DNA from: Escherichia coli
GTDB taxonomy: Bacteria; Pseudomonadota; Gammaproteobacteria; Enterobacterales; Enterobacteriaceae
DNA length: 64,000 bases
Reading direction: 5' to 3' (one strand)
Assembly (NCBI RefSeq): GCF_002854065.1
Contig: NZ_CP024147.1
Positions 1,514 to 53,624 of this stretch are shown piece after piece; position 1 is the stretch's first letter; every line of letters begins with the position of its first letter. Below the pieces are notes generated by a model. The model saw nothing but the letters and a program-made list of their open reading frames with translations. It was not told the origin of the DNA and searched no databases. The translations under genes and the position numbers were made by a program.

Positions 1514-1981
1514 ATGGACACTACCCTTCCCTTTCTAATTTTGTACGCTTGTTTATCAGCCCTACTTTTTTTCTGGGATGCAAAGCATGGCTTGTTACCT
1601 GACAGATTTACGTGCCCGTTACTCTGGTCAGGTCTTTTGTTCTATCAAGTTTGTCATCCTGATGGTTTAGCCGATGCGTTATGGGGGGCAATTATTGGTT
1701 ACGGCACATTCGCTGTCATTTACTGGGGGTATCGCATACTGCGCCATAAAGAAGGATTAGGCTATGGTGATGTGAAGTTTCTCGCCGCCCTTGGCGCCTG
1801 GCATTCATGGGCCTTCTTACCACGACTGGTTTTCCTTGCTGCCTCATTCGCTTGCGGAGCCGTAGTTATTGGTCTGCTCATGAGAGGAAAAGAATCATTA
1901 AAAAACCCGCTGCCTTTTGGGCCATTTCTGGCGGCTGCGGGTTTCGTTATAGGCTGGGATAGTTTGCTGATAGGCCGTTAA
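1514..1981 (+). CDS. gspO: Short A24-family prepilin peptidase-like membrane protein (155 aa)
   Basis: ORF track 155 aa with multiple hydrophobic segments and LLPD and [16 protein letters not shown] motifs typical of the prepilin peptidase aspartyl protease domain; RBS gagga upstream; lies between rpsJ and bfr where K-12 carries the gsp cluster ending in gspO. Symbol is by position and similarity only. Confidence 0.7.
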
Positions 1982-18878: not shown

Positions 18879-19511
18879 ATGGTGCTTGGCAAACCGCAAA
18901 CAGACCCGACTCTCGAATGGTTCTTGTCTCATTGCCACATTCATAAGTACCCATCCAAGAGCACGCTTATTCACCAGGGTGAAAAAGCGGAAACGCTGTA
19001 CTACATCGTTAAAGGCTCTGTGGCAGTGCTGATCAAAGACGAAGAGGGTAAAGAAATGATCCTCTCCTATCTGAATCAGGGTGATTTTATTGGCGAACTG
19101 GGCCTGTTTGAAGAGGGCCAGGAACGTAGCGCATGGGTACGTGCGAAAACCGCCTGTGAAGTGGCTGAAATTTCGTACAAAAAATTTCGCCAATTGATTC
19201 AGGTAAACCCGGACATTCTGATGCGTCTGTCTGCACAGATGGCGCGTCGTCTGCAAGTCACTTCAGAGAAAGTGGGCAACCTGGCGTTCCTCGACGTGAC
19301 GGGCCGCATTGCACAGACTCTGCTGAATCTGGCAAAACAACCAGACGCTATGACTCACCCGGACGGTATGCAAATCAAAATTACCCGTCAGGAAATCGGT
19401 CAGATTGTCGGCTGTTCTCGTGAAACCGTGGGACGCATTCTGAAGATGCTTGAAGATCAGAACCTGATCTCCGCACACGGTAAAACCATCGTCGTTTACG
19501 GCACTCGTTAA
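18879..19511 (+). CDS. crp: cAMP receptor protein CRP
   Basis: ORF track 210 aa [51 protein letters not shown]...; no deviation noticed from the canonical sequence as remembered. Confidence 0.97.
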
Positions 19512-32141: not shown

Positions 32142-32156
32142 GGTAATGACTCCAAC

Positions 32157-32660
32157 TTATTGATAGTGTTTTATGTTCAGATAATGCCCGATGACTTTGT
32201 CATGCAGCTCCACCGATTTTGAGAACGACAGCGACTTCCGTCCCAGCCGTGCCAGGTGCTGCCTCAGATTCAGGTTATGCCGCTCAATTCGCTGCGTATA
32301 TCGCTTGCTGATTACGTGCAGCTTTCCCTTCAGGCGGGATTCATACAGCGGCCAGCCATCCGTCATCCATATCACCACGTCAAAGGGTGACAGCAGGCTC
32401 ATAAGACGCCCCAGCGTCGCCATAGTGCGTTCACCGAATACGTGCGCAACAACCGTCTTCCGGAGCCTGTCATACGCGTAAAACAGCCAGCGCTGGCGCG
32501 ATTTAGCCCCGACGTATCCCCACTGTTCGTCCATTTCCGCGCAGACGATGACGTCACTGCCCGGCTGTATGCGCGAGGTTACCGACTGCGGCCTGAGTTT
32601 TTTAAATGGCGGAAAATCGTGTTGAGGCCAACGCCCATAATGCGGGCGGTTGCCCGGCAT
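32157..32660 (-). CDS. insB: IS1 transposase InsB (expressed as InsAB' fusion by -1 frameshift)
   Basis: ORF track 167 aa [16 protein letters not shown]...KHYQ matches IS1 InsB. Confidence 0.93.
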
Positions 32661-32854
32661 CCAACGCCATTCATGGCCATATCAATGATTTTCTGGTGCG
32701 TACCGGGTTGAGAAGCGGTGTAAGTGAACTGCAGTTGCCATGTTTTACGGCAGTGAGAGCAGAGATAGCGCTGATGTCCGGCAGTGCTTTTGCCGTTACG
32801 CACCACCCCGTCAGTAGCTGAACAGGAGGGACAGCTGATAGAAACAGAAGCCAC
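32579..32854 (-). CDS. insA: IS1 InsA (transposition inhibitor / N-terminal part of transposase)
   Basis: ORF track 91 aa [42 protein letters not shown]...; A6C slippery motif (plus gtttttt 32597-32603) in the insA/insB overlap. Confidence 0.93.
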
Positions 32855-32909
32855 TGGAGCACCTCAAAAACACCATCATACACTAAATCAGTAAGTTGGC
32901 AGCATCACC

Positions 32910-36043: not shown

Positions 36044-36922
36044 TTATTGGAAAAATTGAGAGGGATTTTCACGTAACATCACATCCACATCGGCCTGACT
36101 GAATCCTGACTGGCGCAATTGCGGAATAAAGGTGGTTAGTAAATAGTCATAGCCATAACCACCGTTGGCTTTTAAATGGGAGCGGCGCGTAATATCCATC
36201 GACAGCATGACGCGGTTCAGCAACCCACGGTCGCGTAGCGCATGAAGCATCGCAATACGCTTTTCGTCCGGGTAGTAACTGTTCTTACCAATGGTGTCGA
36301 ACTGCACATACGCGCCGAGATCGATCATCTTCAAAATGTTGTCGAGGTTGTCTTTCAGATCGCAGTGACCAACGGTGACGCGCGAAAGATCAACTCCGTG
36401 GGCTTGCAACAAAGCCAGTTGCTCCAGCCCCATCGTGCTGAACGACGTATGCGTGGAGATCGGGCGTCCGGTCTGGTTATGTGCCAGCGCGGCGGCAATA
36501 AATACCTTCTCTTCCAGCGGCGTAATCTTCCCTTCGCTGGAGCCGATCTCCGCGATGATCCCGGCTTTCAGTTCCGTGCCATCGATACCCTGCTCAATTT
36601 CATCGACCATCTCCTGCGCCAGTTCCTGCACGCTGCGGGTCGCCACATGTTCCGGGAAAAACGCGTCCTGGTAATAACCGGTACAGGCCACCACGTTGAT
36701 CCCCGTCTCGCGCATTACATCGAGCATAAATTGCGCATTGCGCCCCATGTAACGGTTGGTCATCTCAATCACATTACGCACGCCCCGGGCCATCAGGTCG
36801 TTCATCTCCTGGCAAATGAACGAATACTGATCAAGGCGGCAGTCCACGTTGTTTTTAAAGCCGGAGAGATCAATATGCAGATGCTCATGGGCGAGGGTGT
36901 AACCCGTCGGATCAAAACTCAT
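36044..36922 (-). CDS. php: Phosphotriesterase homology protein (amidohydrolase superfamily)
   Basis: ORF track 292 aa [32 protein letters not shown]... with metal-binding HxH motif. Confidence 0.9.
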
Positions 36923-38145
36923 AGGGTGTCTCCTGCAAACCGGAGGGAGGAAAGAAAAGAGCGACCATTTTGTGGCGGTGGCGCACGGAAAAATTCACAC
37001 ACGGTAGCCCCCACATCAGAAAGCGTGGTGCGCACACCGATCTGCGTAGTGACCAGCCCTTGCTGATAAACCAGCACTGGCACCACTTCACGGGTATGGT
37101 GGCTGTGACCAATGGTCGGATCGTTACCGTGATCCGCCATCACGACCAGGCAATCATCTGGCTGCATCGCCTCGACAAGCCGGGCAAGATTACGGTCAAC
37201 GACCTGCAAACGTTCGGCATAACTTGCGACGTCTTCTGCGTGACCAGCGAGGTCGGTTTCCTGAATGTTGGTGCAAATAAACGCTGTCTGATGGGTGATA
37301 AATTCGTCGAGGGTGATATCCATAATCCGCTGGCTATCCACCAGATTTTGCCAGCTCACGCCATAAGGATTGTTGACGATATCTGCCACCTTACCCACCA
37401 GCACGGTTGGCACGCCTGCTTCATACAGTTTTTGTGGCACCTGCACTTTTTCATCGACGCCATAGCCCATATGCACGACCTGGAAACCGTTGTCATAAGC
37501 GCCAGAACGCGGCGCATTAATACCAATAAAGCGCCCTTCTTTGCTTTCTGCGGCATCGAGAATACGCTGACTGTCGGTTAACAGGCCGCCAAATGTAATG
37601 ACCCGACCGACCTGTACCTGGTCACGCACGATACGACCAATTTTGATTGCGTCGTCAAAAGAGATCACAGAGAGATTGGCGGTAATGTTATAGACTTGGC
37701 CTAAATCCGCCTCGAGATTATCGCCAATCGCAACCGCCTGATTGACTCACAGAAATTGCAGTTCATCGCCACGGCGCTCCACCTGCCAACCGGCGGATAC
37801 TAATGCCTGCTCAACACGGTCAATCACATCGCGAAAGGGCATCCGCAGCGGCGGTAACGGGCGCGTGCCTAAAATTTCCTGATGCCCCATAAAGGTATCG
37901 CCACCTTCATGTTGCAGCTCTGCCACACCCCAGGTTGCGGAGTCTGACGGCTGCATATCACCTGGCGCATAACCCAATGCGTTGATTAGCCCCAGCTTCT
38001 CCAGCGTTGGTAGCTGCAAATGCGGCAGCTGGCTCAGGATGTGACCACAGGTATTCGCTCCGGCATCTTGCGGGCGCACCAGCGTGACATCTTTCATTGC
38101 ACCTACGCCAAAGCTATCAATCACTAACACCACAAATCGCGCCAT
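36919..38145 (-). pseudogene. yhfW: yhfW (phosphopentomutase-like metalloenzyme) interrupted by an in-frame TGA at 37747-37749
   Basis: ORF track gives a 132-aa N-terminal piece (37747-38145) and a 249-aa C-terminal piece (36919-37668); manual translation shows both are in the same frame with 26 sense codons between them, so a single TGA splits a 408-codon gene. Confidence 0.8.
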
Positions 38146-46743: not shown

Positions 46744-47265
46744 TTAGTTGCTTTCCAGCATGTGAATAATCTGGTTTGCAACCACTTTAGCGCTTTGATC
46801 ATCAGTACGAATGGTCACGTCGGCAATCTCTTCATACAGCGGATTGCGTTCATTGGCCAACGCTTCCAGAACTTCACGTGGCGGTGTTTCAACGTGCAGC
46901 AACGGGCGTTTTTTATCACGCTGCGTGCGTGCAAGTTGCTTTTCGATGGTCGTTTCAAGATAAACGACAACGCCACGAGCGGAAAGACGGTTACGCGTTT
47001 CACGGGATTTCACAGAGCCGCCGCCAGTAGCCAGCACAATACCCTGTTTCTCGGTCAACTCATTGATGACCTTTTCTTCGCGATCGCGGAAGCCTTCTTC
47101 GCCTTCTAAATCGAAAACCCAGCCCACATCAGCTCCGGTTCGTTTCTCAATCTCTTGATCGGAATCGTAAAATTCCATATTGAGTTGTTGAGCTAACTGG
47201 CGCCCAATAGTGCTTTTTCCGGCACCCATAGGCCCAACCAGAAAGATATTGCGTTTCTCTGCCAT
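46744..47265 (-). CDS. aroK: Shikimate kinase I (173 aa)
   Basis: ORF track; start set at [21 protein letters not shown] (P-loop). Confidence 0.95.
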
Positions 47266-47665
47266 TTTTTCGGTACTACTAAGACTATTCGTTAATGATA
47301 AACCCGCTTCGCTCAGAGAGCGCCGCAGGACATGAACTGAAACCTCATAAGATATTGCGAGAGTCAGACTGAAAATTATCTCAATACTCCAGCGGGTTTG
47401 GCAACTGAATAAATCACCCATCCCTCTGCATATCTGGTCGCTGCAAGCGCGCTGCCTTGCTACCACCGCTCTGGCGATAAATCACCGGGTAAGATTAGCG
47501 TAAAAAAGACAGCAAAATGCCGCCTGAATGATAAATCATCATCATGGAACGCAGGCAGCGAAGAGCACCAACTCTCAAATCGGTACTCCTTGTATGCTAA
47601 ATACCTGCGCGCGTCAAATAGATGAAACACGTTCAGCGTAAAAACATTACCGCTTTTACGGCTGT

Positions 47666-48904
47666 TTACTCACTGGAAACCAGTCGTGGCGTGATAAACA
47701 CCACTAACTCGCGTCGTTCATCTTCTTTTCCGTCATGACGAAATAATTGCCCGAACCAGGGAATGTCGCCAAGCAACGGCACGCTATCCTGACCCGATTT
47801 ATTTTTACGGGTAAAAATGCCGCCCAGCGCCAACGTTTCTCCGCTTTTGACCTCGACCTGCGTTTCGATCTCCTGCTTATCAATCGCCAGCACTTCGCCA
47901 TCGGCCTGCTGTAGCACCTGCCCCGGAACGTTCTGGCTGATGTGTAATTTCAGCCGGATGCGACCTTTTTGTAACACCGTGGGCGTGACCTCCATCCCCA
48001 GGACTGCCTCTTTAAATTCCACCGACGTCGCGCCACTTTCCCCGCTGGAAACTTGATATGGAATTTCGCTCCCCTGTTTAATGCTGGCAGGCTGAAGATG
48101 TGAGGCCAGCAGACGCGGACTAGCGATAATATCCAGCTGCTGTTTTTGTTCGAGCGCAGAAAGCTCAAGATCCAGCAAACGTCCGTTGATGCGCCCAATG
48201 TTAAAACCGACATGCGTTGTCGCCGTCGCTACGGAGAGGTCGCTGCCAAGCGTGGTGACTTGCCCAACGCCACCAGCTTGTTGCGCATCGGCCAGCGTCC
48301 ATTTCACGCCTAACTCACGCAAACTTTTTTCATTAATGGTGACAATATGCGCCGACAGCTCAACCTGCCCGACCGGCAGATCCATTTGCGCTACCCACTG
48401 TTCAAGGGCGCTTAACGCCGTTTTGTTATCTCGTAGCAAAAGGCGATTGGTGCGTTTATCGACGGTCATACTCCCTTTGGCACTCAGTAGCTTTTCCCCA
48501 GCTTTCGCCAGCTCTCCGGCGTCGGCGTATTGCAGAGTAATATTGCGATTTTCCAGCGGCAGATTTGCCTGCGCCCGCGCCTGCTCCGCTTCCTGACGGG
48601 CGATATTGTCATTCTGCCAGGCAATGGAATGCACTGAGAGAATGTTGCCCTCCTGGCGCGTTATCAGTCCGGCGCTTTTCACTACAGTTTGTAGTGCCTG
48701 CTTCCAGGGAACATCTGTTAGATGTAACGACACCGTACCGCTGACGTCTGGCGACACCACCAGGTTCAACTTCTCCTGTTCAGCCAGCGCCTGCAACACC
48801 TGAGCTACCGGAACGTCATCCACCATCAGCGTCACTTTTTGCGGCTTTGCCGCCTGTACGCCGGGTATCAGCATCAACAGTAGTGCGGCTATCCATTGCT
48901 TCAT
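47666..48904 (-). CDS. hofQ: Secretin-family outer-membrane channel HofQ (DNA uptake)
   Basis: ORF track 412 aa with signal peptide and secretin C-domain. Confidence 0.9.
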   Translation of the reverse strand: MKQWIAALLLMLIPGVQAAKPQKVTLMVDDVPVAQVLQALAEQEKLNLVVSPDVSGTVSLHLTDVPWKQALQTVVKSAGLITRQEGNILSVHSIAWQNDNIARQEAEQARAQANLPLENRNITLQYADAGELAKAGEKLLSAKGSMTVDKRTNRLLLRDNKTALSALEQWVAQMDLPVGQVELSAHIVTINEKSLRELGVKWTLADAQQAGGVGQVTTLGSDLSVATATTHVGFNIGRINGRLLDLELSALEQKQQLDIIASPRLLASHLQPASIKQGSEIPYQVSSGESGATSVEFKEAVLGMEVTPTVLQKGRIRLKLHISQNVPGQVLQQADGEVLAIDKQEIETQVEVKSGETLALGGIFTRKNKSGQDSVPLLGDIPWFGQLFRHDGKEDERRELVVFITPRLVSSE

Positions 48905-49220
48905 TTGTATCTCCTTGCCGTTGCCACAACCATTGTGGCGGTTCGCAGTTTGTCCCGGTACCCAGCGTTAGTACGTCTGGCGTCAGCTGTAAAATTGTCC
49001 AGCCGTTTTCCAGCACATCGTTTTGCTGCACCCGTCGCCATTTCTTTTGCCCGTCTTTTATTACACCGATGATGCGCTCGCCTCGCCCTACCATCCCCTG
49101 ATAGCGCCACTGGCTAAGTTCGCTAATCCGGCATAGATCTTCCGGCGGTTTAAAAGGGTCACGCATACCGGTTAAAAGGCACAATGCAATACCTGCCAAC
49201 AACCAGCGTTTAACCCTCAT
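48816..49220 (-). CDS. hofP: HofP (134 aa from MRVKRWLL)
   Basis: ORF track 147 aa; internal Met start chosen; overlaps hofQ 5' end. Confidence 0.75.
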   Translation of the reverse strand: MRVKRWLLAGIALCLLTGMRDPFKPPEDLCRISELSQWRYQGMVGRGERIIGVIKDGQKKWRRVQQNDVLENGWTILQLTPDVLTLGTGTNCEPPQWLWQRQGDTNEAMDSRTTVDADTRRTGGKAAKSDADGG

Positions 49221-49650
49221 GCGGCGTCTCCAGTTGTAGGGTGAACAAAAGATCATCACCTTCCACGCTTAATGAAAAACGGCTCACGCTGACGTTGCGC
49301 TCTGCCAGCCGTGTAAATGCCGACGGCACTGCTTCCCACAGCGTTTTCAACGCCAACTCGCCTCCCTGCGCGGATGGATGCCAGGAAACCAGTTGCGCGC
49401 CGGATAACTGAAAATCCAGTGGCGAAAAGGGCAGCGTTTTTTCCTCGCTGAAGGGAGTGGTGTCTACCAGGCGATACAGTGCGGCCCACTGCTGGTGATG
49501 ACTTGCCCGTAGTCGAATTAATGCGTCGCTCTCTTCATGATGTGTCGATGACAGAAAAATGAGCGTAACTAACATCAGCAACCAGACTGCCCAGCAAAGC
49601 TGGCGGAGACGGGGTGATGTGGCGAACCACCAGTCAAAGAACATGTTCAT
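49210..49650 (-). CDS. hofO: HofO (PilO-like)
   Basis: ORF track 146 aa with N-terminal TM. Confidence 0.8.
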   Translation of the reverse strand: MNMFFDWWFATSPRLRQLCWAVWLLMLVTLIFLSSTHHEESDALIRLRASHHQQWAALYRLVDTTPFSEEKTLPFSPLDFQLSGAQLVSWHPSAQGGELALKTLWEAVPSAFTRLAERNVSVSRFSLSVEGDDLLFTLQLETPHEG

Positions 49651-50173
49651 CGCTAACCTTCCTTGTTAACTGATACTCAAATTGCCAGCGTCCCTGCGCA
49701 TCCTGCTGCGTGGCCCCCCGCTGATTGAGATGAAAAGACGCATCCTGGCGGAGTGACGTTTCCAGTGCGTTTAACGCGGTAATGCTTGTTGTCAGCCCCT
49801 TGATCTCCAGCGTTCCCTGCTGCCAGCTTATCGTTGTCAGCCAGGCGTGCTCGGGTAAAAGCGCCGCCAGTGCTTCCAGCGCAGATTGCCAGTCGCGGGT
49901 AAATTGTCGCTGGCGCTGCCGTTGCAAACGCTGTTCGCGTAACTGCTGTTGCTGCAGCAAACGTGGTTTCGTTATCTGTAAGCTGCGGGCGAGTTGTTGT
50001 TCCCCCTGAAGCAAAACGGCGTCTACGCGAGCTTCGGCGCTGCTTGTCAGACGCAGTATTAGCGTTATCCCGACGGCCAGCAGCAGAGGCGCAACGAACA
50101 TCAGCAACCAGAAACGAAGAAAAGCGGTCCGGCGTTGCTGTCGCCAGGGCAAAAAATTAATTGGCGGGTTCAT
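49634..50173 (-). CDS. hofN: HofN (PilN-like)
   Basis: ORF track 179 aa with N-terminal TM and coiled-coil. Confidence 0.8.
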   Translation of the reverse strand: MNPPINFLPWRQQRRTAFLRFWLLMFVAPLLLAVGITLILRLTSSAEARVDAVLLQGEQQLARSLQITKPRLLQQQQLREQRLQRQRQRQFTRDWQSALEALAALLPEHAWLTTISWQQGTLEIKGLTTSITALNALETSLRQDASFHLNQRGATQQDAQGRWQFEYQLTRKVSDEHVL

Positions 50174-50952
50174 CAGTACGCCTTCCCAAGCGCCAGCCCC
50201 AGCGCGATGGCAAAGTCTCCACCTGGCGGCGGTAACGGCGGCTGACGAACAGAAACGGCCTCCCAGGGATCAAATCCGCCTTCGCCACATATCGCGACGC
50301 TTTCGGGATCAACGGATAACGCTGCCGCCAGCTCCTTCGCGCTAGTCATCCCCACCGCCAGTTTGCGCCCCCAGCGATAGCGCGTCGCCCACAGCCACTG
50401 TTCGTTATCACGCCAGGCCAGACATTGCTGATGAGAAGGTAAAAAAGGCAGGAATCGCTGTAATGCACTGGCATCCGGGGTGATCGCACTAACATGAACA
50501 CGCAACCTTTCTGCCAGAGTAAGCAGCGTTGCCAGCTCTTTGCTTTGCGCGGCAGTCACGTTATAGGCGGGACTGAGTGAGTCTTCGCTGTAATCGAAGC
50601 GCAGGGAGTCCGGATCCATATCCAGCTCGCGGGCCATCGTCCCGGAAAGCCAGGCCGTTTGCTCCCGCTCACCGAGGGACATCGGCGGGCGCGGAAATGA
50701 CCGCTGTAATGTGCGACTGGCGGGAAACGCCAACATGATGTGATGGCGCTGCGGCAGTTCGCGACTCCACGGTAACAACGTTTTAGCCAGCCGCTGCGCA
50801 TCAACAATCCGCCCATCTTTGATAATGTCGTGCGCCAGCGGCAACCGCCACCAGCGTTGCAAAAAGCATTCTTTTGCGCCCCGCACAATAGCAACCGCTA
50901 CCGCTTCTTGCTGTTGTAAATGCAAACCAATTTGCCAGATCTTAAATGCCAT
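50173..50952 (-). CDS. hofM: HofM (PilM-like; 259 aa from MAFKIWQIG)
   Basis: ORF track 268 aa; internal Met start chosen. Confidence 0.8.
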   Translation of the reverse strand: MAFKIWQIGLHLQQQEAVAVAIVRGAKECFLQRWWRLPLAHDIIKDGRIVDAQRLAKTLLPWSRELPQRHHIMLAFPASRTLQRSFPRPPMSLGEREQTAWLSGTMARELDMDPDSLRFDYSEDSLSPAYNVTAAQSKELATLLTLAERLRVHVSAITPDASALQRFLPFLPSHQQCLAWRDNEQWLWATRYRWGRKLAVGMTSAKELAAALSVDPESVAICGEGGFDPWEAVSVRQPPLPPPGGDFAIALGLALGKAY

Positions 50953-51071
50953 TGTGATGATCTCCTTATCACCCGTCACTCTGACGGGTATATCAATGCG
51001 TCTGGCTTGCCTTTATACTACCGCGCGTTTGTTTATAAACTGCCCAAATGAAACTAAATGGGAAATTTCCA

Positions 51072-53624
51072 GTGAAGTTCGTAAAGTATTTTTTGATCCT
51101 TGCAGTCTGTTGCATTCTGCTGGGAGCAGGCTCGATTTATGGCCTATACCGCTACATCGAGCCACAACTGCCGGATGTGGCGACATTAAAAGATGTTCGC
51201 CTGCAAATTCCGATGCAGATTTACAGCGCCGATGGCGAGCTGATTGCTCAATACGGTGAGAAACGTCGTATTCCGGTTACGCTGGATCAAATCCCGCCGG
51301 AGATGGTGAAAGCCTTTATCGCGACGGAAGACAGCCGCTTCTACGAGCATCACGGCGTTGACCCGGTGGGGATCTTCCGTGCAGCAAGCGTGGCGCTGTT
51401 CTCCGGCCACGCGTCACAAGGGGCGAGTACCATTACCCAGCAGCTGGCGAGAAACTTCTTCCTCAGTCCAGAACGCACGCTGATGCGTAAGATTAAGGAA
51501 GTCTTCCTCGCGATTCGCATTGAACAGCTGCTGACGAAAGACGAGATCCTCGAGCTTTATCTGAACAAGATTTACCTTGGTTACCGCGCCTATGGTGTCG
51601 GTGCTGCGGCACAAGTCTATTTCGGAAAAACGGTCGACCAACTGACGCTGAACGAAATGGCGGTGATAGCCGGACTGCCGAAAGCGCCTTCCACCTTCAA
51701 CCCGCTCTACTCGATGGATCGTGCCGTCGCGCGGCGTAACGTCGTGCTATCGCGGATGCTGGATGAAGGGTATATCACCCAACAACAGTTCGATCAGACA
51801 CGCACTGAGGCGATTAACGCTAACTATCACGCGCCGGAGATTGCTTTTTCTGCGCCGTACCTGAGCGAAATGGTGCGCCAGGAGATGTATAACCGTTATG
51901 GCGAAAGTGCCTATGAAGACGGTTATCGCATTTACACCACCATCACCCGCAAAGTGCAGCAGGCCGCGCAGCAGGCGGTACGTAATAACGTGCTGGACTA
52001 CGACATGCGCCACGGCTATCGCGGCCCGGCAAATGTGCTGTGGAAAGTGGGCGAGTCGGCGTGGGATAACAACAAGATTACCGATACGCTGAAGGCGCTG
52101 CCGACCTATGGTCCGCTGCTGCCTGCCGCAGTCACCAGCGCCAATCCTCAGGGAGCGACGGCGATGCTGGCGGACGGGTCGACCGTCGCATTGAGTATGG
52201 AAGGCGTTCGCTGGGCGCGTCCTTACCGTTCGGATACTCAGCAGGGACCGACGCCGCGTAAAGTGACCGATGTTCTGCAAACGGGTCAGCAAATCTGGGT
52301 TCGTCAGGTTGGCGATGCATGGTGGCTGGCACAAGTGCCGGAAGTGAACTCGGCACTGGTGTCGATCAATCCGCAAAACGGTGCCGTTATGGCGTTGGTC
52401 GGTGGCTTTGATTTCAATCAGAGCAAGTTTAACCGCGCCACCCAGGCACTGCGTCAGGTAGGTTCCAACATCAAACCGTTCCTCTACACCGCGGCGATGG
52501 ATAAAGGTCTGACGCTGGCAAGTATGTTGAACGATGTGCCAATTTCTCGCTGGGATGCAGGTGCCGGTTCTGACTGGCAGCCGAAGAACTCACCACCGCA
52601 GTATGCCGGTCCAATTCGCTTACGTCAGGGGCTGGGTCAGTCGAAAAACGTGGTGATGGTACGCGCAATGCGGGCGATGGGCGTCGACTACGCTGCAGAA
52701 TATCTGCAACGCTTCGGCTTCCCGGCGCAAAACATTGTCCACACCGAATCGCTGGCGCTGGGTTCAGCGTCCTTCACCCCAATGCAGGTGGCGCGCGGCT
52801 ACGCGGTCATGGCGAACGGCGGCTTCCTGGTGGACCCGTGGTTTATCAGCAAAATTGAAAACGATCAGGGCGGCGTGATTTTCGAAGCGAAACCGAAAGT
52901 AGCTTGCCCGGAATGTGATATTCCGGTGATTTACGGTGATACGCAGAAATCGAACGTGCTGGAAAATAACAATGTTGAAGATGTCGCTATCTCCCGCGAG
53001 CAGCAGAATGTTTCTGTACCAATGCCGCAGCTGGAGCAGGCAAATCAGGCGTTAGTTGCGAAGACTGGCGCGCAGGAGTACGCACCGCACGTCATCAACA
53101 CTCCGCTGGCATTCCTGATTAAGAGTGCTTTGAACACCAATATCTTTGGTGAGCCAGGCTGGCAGGGTACCGGCTGGCGTGCAGGTCGTGATTTGCAGCG
53201 TCGCGATATCGGCGGGAAAACCGGTACCACTAACAGTTCGAAAGATGCGTGGTTCTCGGGTTACGGTCCGGGCGTTGTGACCTCGGTCTGGATTGGCTTT
53301 GATGATCACCGTCGTAATCTCGGTCATACAACGGCTTCCGGAGCGATTAAAGATCAGATCTCAGGTTACGAAGGCGGTGCCAAGAGTGCCCAGCCTGCAT
53401 GGGACGCTTATATGAAAGCCGTTCTTGAAGGTGTGCCGGAGCAGCCGCTGACGCCGCCGCCGGGTATTGTGACGGTGAATATCGATCGCAGCACCGGGCA
53501 GTTAGCTAATGGTGGCAACAGCCGCGAAGAGTATTTCATCGAAGGTACGCAGCCGACACAACAGGCGGTGCACGAGGTGGGAACGACCATTATCGATAAT
53601 GGCGAGGCACAGGAATTGTTCTGA
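51072..53624 (+). CDS. mrcA: Penicillin-binding protein 1A (850 aa, GTG start)
   Basis: ORF track 858 aa; glycosyltransferase and transpeptidase motifs; start at VKFVKYFLIL. Confidence 0.95.
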   Translation: MKFVKYFLILAVCCILLGAGSIYGLYRYIEPQLPDVATLKDVRLQIPMQIYSADGELIAQYGEKRRIPVTLDQIPPEMVKAFIATEDSRFYEHHGVDPVGIFRAASVALFSGHASQGASTITQQLARNFFLSPERTLMRKIKEVFLAIRIEQLLTKDEILELYLNKIYLGYRAYGVGAAAQVYFGKTVDQLTLNEMAVIAGLPKAPSTFNPLYSMDRAVARRNVVLSRMLDEGYITQQQFDQTRTEAINANYHAPEIAFSAPYLSEMVRQEMYNRYGESAYEDGYRIYTTITRKVQQAAQQAVRNNVLDYDMRHGYRGPANVLWKVGESAWDNNKITDTLKALPTYGPLLPAAVTSANPQGATAMLADGSTVALSMEGVRWARPYRSDTQQGPTPRKVTDVLQTGQQIWVRQVGDAWWLAQVPEVNSALVSINPQNGAVMALVGGFDFNQSKFNRATQALRQVGSNIKPFLYTAAMDKGLTLASMLNDVPISRWDAGAGSDWQPKNSPPQYAGPIRLRQGLGQSKNVVMVRAMRAMGVDYAAEYLQRFGFPAQNIVHTESLALGSASFTPMQVARGYAVMANGGFLVDPWFISKIENDQGGVIFEAKPKVACPECDIPVIYGDTQKSNVLENNNVEDVAISREQQNVSVPMPQLEQANQALVAKTGAQEYAPHVINTPLAFLIKSALNTNIFGEPGWQGTGWRAGRDLQRRDIGGKTGTTNSSKDAWFSGYGPGVVTSVWIGFDDHRRNLGHTTASGAIKDQISGYEGGAKSAQPAWDAYMKAVLEGVPEQPLTPPPGIVTVNIDRSTGQLANGGNSREEYFIEGTQPTQQAVHEVGTTIIDNGEAQELF

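Follow-up and report, generated by a model that had tools for sequence, protein, structure and literature searches.

An intact hofMNOPQ operon in a 64-kb window of the Escherichia coli chromosome and its relation to known pilus and DNA-uptake systems

Introduction

The conservation of hofMNOPQ across the Enterobacteriaceae has already been published. Among related systems, the competence-pilus operons comABCDE of Haemophilus influenzae and pilMNOPQ of Vibrio cholerae share its five-gene M-N-O-P-Q order and are controlled through CRP-S sites and Sxy/TfoX (PMC1635313), and the PilMNOPQ proteins of Pseudomonas aeruginosa, Thermus, and Myxococcus, which form the canonical type IVa pilus alignment subcomplex, have the same architecture and predicted topology as those of hofMNOPQ. 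Where H. influenzae and V. cholerae have one CRP-S site, Escherichia coli has two, both weak and both inside mrcA. The E. coli operon is silent under laboratory conditions, natural conditions that induce it are not known, and uptake is inefficient (PMC3330819).

In E. coli K-12 (yrfDCBA-hofQ, b3395-b3391), the two weak CRP-S sites of the hofM (yrfD) promoter gave a weak CRP bandshift, and yrfD was induced 16-fold by Sxy, an effect that was abolished in a crp knockout (PMC1635313). hofQ is needed for DNA uptake in K-12, where Sxy-dependent transformation was lost in a hofQ::kan mutant (PMC3330819), and hofQ mRNA increases when DNA is supplied (PMC9273947). A pilus role has also been described: together with ppdD-hofBC, ppdAB-ygdB-ppdC, and a 'gspO', hofMNOPQ belongs to the gene set for PpdD pilus assembly (bioRxiv 10.1101/856302), which that source credits to the EHEC reconstitution study of Luna Rico et al. 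2019.

Here, the hofMNOPQ locus was analyzed in a window of 64,000 nucleotides (the whole stretch of E. coli DNA under study). It is the ordinary intact chromosomal operon of the species, already known and with nothing new to it; hofMNOPQ is an E. coli core-genome operon whose intactness, Sxy/CRP-S regulation, and DNA-uptake role are in the literature.

Results and Discussion

Five intact, overlapping genes

Five co-directional open reading frames (ORFs) occupy positions 47666 to 50952, all on the minus strand, followed by two terminator-like hairpins that are candidates only.

50173-50952, minus strand: hofM, 259 aa, cytoplasmic, reduced PilM-type actin-like protein
49634-50173, minus strand: hofN, 179 aa, PilN-like bitopic inner-membrane protein
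49210-49650, minus strand: hofO, 146 aa, putative PilO/GspM-like bitopic inner-membrane protein
48816-49220, minus strand: hofP, 134 aa, predicted periplasmic protein in the PilP position
47666-48904, minus strand: hofQ, 412 aa, outer-membrane secretin with STN/N0, Secretin_N, and secretin domains
47649-47662, minus strand: weak terminator-like hairpin directly past the hofQ stop (candidate)
47507-47525: second terminator-like hairpin, from the terminator scan (candidate)

An earlier note on this DNA had described the five genes as hofMNOPQ, intact and with overlapping boundaries. All of this was borne out: the coordinates are exact, the family matches of HofN, HofO, HofP, and HofQ lie far beyond chance, and retranslation of the five ORFs revealed no internal stop or frameshift. 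Adjacent genes overlap by 1 nt (hofM/hofN), 17 nt (hofN/hofO), 11 nt (hofO/hofP), and 89 nt (hofP/hofQ), the last agreeing with the roughly 90 nt previously given. At the shortest overlap, the hofN start ATG and the hofM TGA form ATGA; the longest contains the last 29 codons and the stop codon of hofP. Each of the five genes has a Shine-Dalgarno motif, which is AAGGAG both for hofM (9 nt upstream of the ATG) and for hofQ (6 nt upstream of the ATG).

The locus matches K-12 in its aroK-mrcA position, its divergence from mrcA, and its gene order, gene lengths, and overlaps. Amino acid identity to the K-12 proteins is 97.2 to 100%, with 16 substitutions in total over the five proteins; HofM is equal in length to b3395 and 98.1% identical to it, HofP is 100% identical, and the 400-bp aroK-hofQ spacer is base-identical. 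The same layout is found in a 100%-identical RefSeq genome. Scanning 47200 to 51350 for sigma-70 promoters and terminators gave no more matches than shuffled sequence did and no hofM promoter, and a search of the whole window against Rfam at the gathering threshold gave no match.

Domain matches of HofN, HofO, HofP, and HofQ

HofN matched Pfam PilN (PF05137; E=8e-10; 39 bits, cutoff 22.8) and contains a single hydrophobic segment (residues 22 to 40) preceded by an N-terminal INFLPWR sequence (residues 5 to 11); this domain and an N-terminal motif of the PilM-binding type are shared with canonical PilN. In PilN, a short cytoplasmic N-terminal peptide of the INLLPxR type is the motif that binds PilM, as in the 2YCH and 5EOU complexes. 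Of the other canonical components, PilO is the bitopic inner-membrane partner of PilN, and PilP is a periplasmic lipoprotein that connects PilNO with the N0 domain of the secretin. HofO matched Pfam PF25319, the 'HofO EspM-like domain' (E=1e-25), and has one hydrophobic (TM) segment at residues 18 to 36. HofP matched its own family only (Pfam HofP, PF10748; E=3e-80), over the full protein including the C-terminal tail; its N terminus is signal-like, with Cys14 in the atypical lipobox context IALC.

HofQ matched NCBIfam PRK10560, 'DNA uptake porin HofQ' (856 bits, cutoff 598; E=3e-258), and the PilQ family TIGR02515 (448 bits, cutoff 284; E=3e-134). It contains the Pfam domains PF07660, PF03958, and PF00263, and its N terminus resembles a signal peptide. 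Its best PDB relative is the V. cholerae competence protein PilQ (6W6M; E=2e-74), with which the alignment begins at residue 158; residues 1 to 157 of V. cholerae PilQ have no HofQ counterpart, so that the N-terminal extension is missing in HofQ. Canonical PilQ proteins (714 to 901 aa) are far longer.

HofM as a reduced PilM

Direct searches with HofM gave no significant Pfam match (T2SSL alone appeared, and its 17 bits fell short of the cutoff) and nothing relevant in the PDB by phmmer; in NCBIfam there was no match for HofM, HofN, HofO, or HofP. Because these direct HofM searches were without result, HofM had to be assigned through a profile of its family and a model of its structure. Pfam PilM_2 was matched by 36 of 54 members of the HofM family, and the family profile matched the PDB PilM structure 2YCH (E=1.9e-10), as well as 3JC8 and 5EOU. 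The AF2 model of HofM (pLDDT of 95) was ranked by Foldseek as closest to PilM, then to cyto-GspL, and then to FtsA; the PilM matches included 5EOY (E=5e-13) and 2YCH (TM of 0.70). By profile and model, HofM is thus a PilM homologue with the FtsA/PilM actin-like fold in a reduced form.

Canonical PilM of P. aeruginosa, Thermus, and Myxococcus is 350 to 377 aa in length, and HofM is about 100 residues shorter, a size similar to that of the cytoplasmic domain of the type II secretion (T2SS) protein GspL/EpsL. Because the family profile alignment covers PilM residues ∼16 to 235, the shortfall probably sits in the second half of PilM, in subdomain 2B. HofM-type proteins form 154 representative clusters among 1.84 billion proteins. 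One tentative proposal, which we regard as possible but on balance improbable, is that HofM-type proteins of about 260 aa constitute a small and distinct class of reduced PilM, probably without subdomain 2B and hence without nucleotide binding. If this were true, the platform protein of the enterobacterial/pasteurellacean competence pilus would be GspL-like and would work independently of nucleotide. The reduced-PilM reading of HofM may already have been described by Luna Rico et al. 2019.

CRP-S candidates upstream of hofM

The region upstream of hofM contains the following features, and the gene for CRP itself is in the window.

50953-51071: hofM-mrcA divergent spacer, 119 bp, base-identical to K-12
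51118-51139, minus strand: proximal CRP-S candidate taaATCGAgcctgcTCCCAgca, 165 nt upstream of the hofM ATG, within mrcA codons
51199-51220, minus strand: distal CRP-S candidate atcTGCATcggaatTTGCAggc (C6 and G17), 246 nt upstream of the hofM ATG, within mrcA
18879-19511, plus strand: crp (from the annotation, shifted by 777 nt; translation verified)

The spacer lacks a good sigma-70 match for hofM, which is consistent with activator dependence. The earlier note had looked to the hofM-mrcA intergenic region for a CRP-S site, with a position matrix as the check, and on both counts the results were otherwise. Both candidates lie inside the mrcA coding sequence and would therefore escape a scan confined to the intergenic spacer. 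When a CRP-S matrix built from the published consensus was run over 50943 to 51290, the top-scoring CRP-S-type match upstream of hofM was 51118 to 51139, and the best score of 6.56 bits was attained in 25% of shuffles and was therefore no better than chance; 45 matches in the 64 kb scored as high as the best candidate. A matrix scan thus cannot validate the hofM CRP-S sites, and their status rests on published experiments instead.

Since the scan was indecisive, we relied on sequence identity with the K-12 fragment that had been tested by experiment. The published EMSA fragment corresponds to 51103 to 51228 of the window, with 51118 to 51139 at one end of it (PMC1635313), and this CRP-S-bearing fragment, for which CRP binding was demonstrated in K-12, has exactly the same bases here. 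We infer that 51118 to 51139 is the published proximal CRP-S site. The position of the distal candidate fits the published '-246' site, which E. coli shares with Salmonella and Yersinia as a conserved site (PMC1635313). Both candidates fit the CRP-S rule (22 bp, in which position 6 and its mirror, position 17, are C or G and never T), and both are invariant across 10 lineages. The product of crp, the cAMP receptor protein, activates the hofM promoter jointly with Sxy (PMC1635313).

A working model and the short prepilin peptidase

We are close to certain that hofMNOPQ codes for two parts, the alignment subcomplex and the secretin, of a chromosomal type IVa pilus/DNA-uptake machine that is induced by Sxy and CRP. 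HofM would be cytoplasmic, and the N-terminal INFLPWR peptide of HofN would dock into it; HofN and HofO would be bitopic proteins of the inner membrane, HofP a periplasmic connector, and HofQ an outer-membrane secretin channel for the passage of the PpdD pilus and DNA. The five genes would be expressed from a single transcript with tightly coupled translation. Transcription would be silent in ordinary culture and would be turned on by cAMP-CRP with Sxy/TfoX, acting at the two weak CRP-S sites inside mrcA. The strain from which the window derives is expected to behave like K-12. The previous reading of the cluster as cryptic but possibly functional agrees with the published K-12 work (PMC1635313, PMC3330819), and the window holds no sequence evidence that contradicts a pilus/uptake role. 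The genes for the remaining parts of the machine, namely, ppdD-hofBC, ppdAB-ygdB-ppdC, sxy, comEA, comEC, dprA, and pppA, lie outside the window.

The window does contain a prepilin peptidase gene.

1514-1981, plus strand: short A24 prepilin peptidase of the O157 type, 155 aa, between rpsJ and bfr

The protein matched Peptidase_A24 (PF01478; E=3e-22; 79 bits, cutoff 26.5) over model positions 2 to 103 of 104. It shares a complete A24 domain and both Asp motifs with enzymes of the GspO/PilD type: D22 and D86 align with the aspartate motifs of GspO (WD...LPD and GYGDVK) and are presumably the catalytic aspartates. Only the A24 domain was found, and the N-terminal cytoplasmic (methyltransferase/DiS_P_DiS) domain is absent; relative to K-12 GspO, ∼72 N-terminal residues are missing. 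The peptidase is 41% identical to the C-terminal two-thirds of K-12 GspO, in an alignment that starts at GspO residue 80. With this level of identity and no upstream remnant, a truncated K-12 gspO was ruled out. Whereas the K-12 locus contains gspBA and gspC-O, the window has the lone peptidase between rpsJ and bfr, and chiA is also absent. The peptidase shares 100% identity with WP_000381746.1, the protein that O157:H7 has in the gspO position. The locus is an ancient one with two haplotypes, at which the window carries the O157-type allele, and the peptidase gene does not belong to the hof operon.

The earlier note had combined the operon and this gene as a possible sign of retained DNA uptake. 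The peptidase itself is real, but the link is circumstantial, as the gene lies 46 kb from the operon and the rpsJ-peptidase-bfr arrangement occurs in 2,254 of 5,426 genomes (42%). We know of no co-regulation of the two. A related alternative is that the operon serves mainly in the assembly of an adhesion pilus (HCP/PpdD) and not in DNA uptake, with the short O157-type enzyme as its dedicated prepilin peptidase. The presence of a 'gspO' beside hofMNOPQ in the PpdD assembly set (bioRxiv 10.1101/856302) would suit this, as would the identity of the peptidase to the O157:H7 protein in the gspO position and its complete A24 domain. However, the two roles are compatible, Sxy-dependent DNA uptake by K-12 does not occur without hofQ (PMC3330819), and the supposedly dedicated peptidase is missing in 58% of the genomes that keep hofMNOPQ. 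We therefore consider this alternative rather unlikely.

Conservation within the species

Among 5,426 complete genomes of E. coli, 5,424 hold the locus, and all five ORFs were intact and of exact length in each of 10 diverse lineages checked. Intactness of hofMNOPQ is thus the species norm, with no lineage-specific retention, and its preservation in this window is not the notable feature that it had been taken for. Across the 10 lineages, piN/piS of the five genes ranged from 0.08 to 0.41, which indicates purifying selection; four genes gave 0.08 to 0.22. hofO had the highest ratio (0.41) and is evolving fairly fast. In 288 of the 5,426 genomes, O157:H7 included, hofM has a deletion of 1 nt close to its 3' end that RefSeq flags as a frameshift; in O157 it changes just the last 7 residues. 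hofQ is lost in one reduced genome.

That the operon is an evolutionary relic, intact by inertia, disused, and neutrally decaying in E. coli, is very improbable: the laboratory silence with no known natural inducer (PMC3330819), the hofM deletion, the one hofQ loss, and the hofO ratio are in its favor, but neutral decay predicts piN/piS near 1 and frequent stops, in contrast to the low ratios of the other four genes, the exact ORF lengths, the near-universal presence of the locus, the confinement of the O157 deletion to the extreme C terminus, and the published function upon induction (PMC3330819).

The window haplotype (47600 to 51300) is at least 99% identical to only 28 of the 5,426 genomes, which represents ordinary allelic variation.

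Integrity and conservation of the hofMNOPQ operon

The window corresponds to the rplD-envZ stretch of the E. coli chromosome and is collinear with that of RefSeq strain CUWW06 at 99.98 to 100% identity, one IS1 insertion being the sole exception. An earlier note had described all five hof genes as present, intact, and overlapping at their boundaries, with an overlap of about 90 nt between hofP and hofQ, and every detail was confirmed. The operon lies between aroK and the divergent gene mrcA (GTG start at 51072) and comprises the following genes:

50173-50952, minus strand: hofM, 259 aa
49634-50173, minus strand: hofN, 179 aa
49210-49650, minus strand: hofO, 146 aa
48816-49220, minus strand: hofP, 134 aa
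47666-48904, minus strand: hofQ, 412 aa

Successive genes from hofM to hofQ overlap by 1 (ATGA), 17, 11, and 89 nt. All five ORFs are equal in length to K-12 b3395-b3391, retranslation of the five revealed no internal stops, and the proteins share 97.2 to 100% amino acid identity with those of K-12. A Shine-Dalgarno motif precedes every hof start codon. For hofQ, the motif is AAGGAG, located 6 nt upstream and within hofP, and the start is followed by a signal-peptide-like N terminus; thus, the 89-nt overlap is genuine and the start is not miscalled.

Of 5,426 complete E. coli genomes, 5,424 hold the locus (coverage of at least 80%), and all five ORFs had the same lengths in each of 10 lineages of a spread sample that included K-12. 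Pooled piN/piS values in these lineages (hofQ, 0.08; hofP, 0.17; hofO, 0.41; hofN, 0.19; hofM, 0.22) showed that the five genes are under purifying selection, which is weakest on hofO. Intactness of the operon in the window is not noteworthy.

O157:H7-type genomes (288/5,426) lack one nucleotide of a C-run that lies 24 nt upstream of the hofM stop, as seen in the O157:H7 Z570 locus (L006, 2774-3552) at the equivalent of window position ~50197. RefSeq labels this hofM "frameshifted"; the change is limited to the last 7 residues, after which the reading frame, distinct from that of hofN, continues beyond the normal stop. The deletion deserves attention given the reported reconstitution of the EHEC pilus system; the PpdD pilus gene set is attributed to that reconstitution (Luna Rico et al., 2019). 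In strain CNR20180903, a 4.28-Mb urine isolate (L007, 394-3110), most of hofQ is lost and a truncated barA adjoins hofP, indicating a large rearrangement or deletion with an end inside hofQ.

Across 47666-51300, divergence from K-12 is mosaic. hofP and the aroK-hofQ and hofM-mrcA spacers are 100% identical to K-12, while hofQ, hofO, hofN, and hofM are 97.8 to 98.4% identical (dS, 0.04 to 0.07). An operon at least 99% identical to that of the window occurs in only 28 of the 5,426 genomes. The divergence looks like ordinary recombination mosaicism.

Identities of the Hof proteins

HofQ matched the NCBIfam "DNA uptake porin HofQ" (E=3e-258) and PilQ subfamily TIGR02515, and it contains the Pfam domains STN, Secretin_N, and Secretin. 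Its nearest solved structure is the Vibrio cholerae competence-pilus secretin 6W6M (E=2e-74). HofQ lacks the N-terminal extension of that secretin, as the alignment does not begin until its residue 158. HofN combines a PilN domain with a single transmembrane segment and carries the motif INFLPWR at its N terminus. HofO and HofP each matched their own Pfam family, the former with one transmembrane segment and the latter with a signal-like N terminus.

Direct searches with HofM gave T2SSL as the sole Pfam match, below threshold, and no PDB sequence match. Relatives were therefore sought among 1.84 billion representative proteins. The family is very small (154 related clusters at 50% identity), and its members, mostly 250 to 290 aa, fall ~100 aa short of canonical PilM and are about as large as the T2SS GspL cytoplasmic domain. 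Pfam PilM_2 was matched by 36 of 54 full-length members, and the family profile matched the solved PilM structures 2YCH (E=1.9e-10), 3JC8, and 5EOU. The HofM AlphaFold model (mean pLDDT, 95) was closest to PilM of Pseudomonas aeruginosa and Thermus, followed by the GspL/EpsL cytoplasmic domain and then FtsA. Together, the PilM_2, profile, and model matches show that HofM is a genuine PilM homologue, though one reduced by about 100 residues to the size of GspL.

CRP-S sites upstream of hofM

The earlier note had asked for a matrix search of the hofM-mrcA spacer for CRP-S (Sxy-dependent CRP) sites; such a search is already published (PMC1635313). Cameron and Redfield (2006) predicted two CRP-S sites for yrfD (hofM) and reported weak but specific CRP binding and 16-fold, CRP-requiring induction by Sxy (PMC1635313). 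The sites lie at the ends of the EMSA fragment, the distal one at -246 in E. coli, Salmonella, and Yersinia (PMC1635313). The EMSA primers map to window positions 51103-51228, which places the fragment wholly within the mrcA coding sequence. Our scan gave two candidates, listed here with crp:

51139-51118, minus strand: proximal CRP-S-type 22-mer candidate, 165 nt before the hofM ATG
51220-51199, minus strand: distal CRP-S-type 22-mer candidate, exactly 246 nt before the hofM ATG, with C6 and G17
18879-19511, plus strand: crp

Both candidates lie inside mrcA, and their scores are not above chance (the best was equalled in 25% of shuffles), in agreement with the published remark that the sites are weak (PMC1635313). 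The window and K-12 do not differ at any base of the 119-bp spacer or anywhere in the EMSA fragment. Neither candidate varies among the 10 lineages; this invariance is not statistically meaningful because only 4 of 348 columns in the region vary.

The short prepilin peptidase and operon function

A short prepilin peptidase gene lies elsewhere in the window:

1514-1981, plus strand: short peptidase, 155 aa, with a complete Peptidase_A24 domain

Its neighbors are rpsJ and bfr; K-12 carries gspBA and gspC-O at this place. In the rpsJ-bfd segment (1320-2778), chiA and the gspBA/gspC-O type II secretion cluster are absent, with the lone peptidase in their place. The protein shares only 41% identity with the C-terminal two-thirds of K-12 GspO and keeps both aspartate motifs; no remnant of the missing N terminus was found upstream. 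The O157:H7 protein at this position is 100% identical to it. The bfr-bfd segment is 78% identical to K-12 DNA, versus 100% on the flanking rpsJ side; the rpsJ-tuf interval is an "O157-type" haplotype, and the short-peptidase haplotype occurs in 2,254 of 5,426 genomes (42%). Processing of PpdD is a plausible predicted role. The peptidase is not needed to explain preservation of hofMNOPQ, because the 58% of genomes without the peptidase retain the operon too.

DNA uptake by E. coli is enabled by sxy expression and abolished in hofQ::kan (Sinha and Redfield, 2012; PMC3330819), a 2022 study reports that supplying DNA raises hofQ mRNA (PMC9273947), and PpdD pilus assembly uses hofMNOPQ with hofBC, ppdAB-ygdB-ppdC, and a gspO peptidase (bioRxiv 10.1101/856302). 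Therefore, "cryptic" here means unexpressed in the laboratory, not functionless. The suggestion that the operon is cryptic with a possible uptake capacity is sound in light of the published uptake work (PMC3330819); the description was accurate, but all of it is established knowledge on a core E. coli operon.

Other features of the window

The IS1 element (32142-32909, 768 bp, InsA and InsB ORFs) has GGTAATGACTCC.../GGTGATGCTGCC... as its terminal inverted repeats; its target duplication is 9 bp long (CCTGTATCG). The element occupies the cysG-yhfL intergenic region and is missing from the otherwise near-identical CUWW06. The phosphopentomutase-like gene yhfW of the yhfS-Z cluster (36919-38145, minus strand) is interrupted at codon 133 by an in-frame stop, and RefSeq annotates it as a pseudogene in the near-identical genome.
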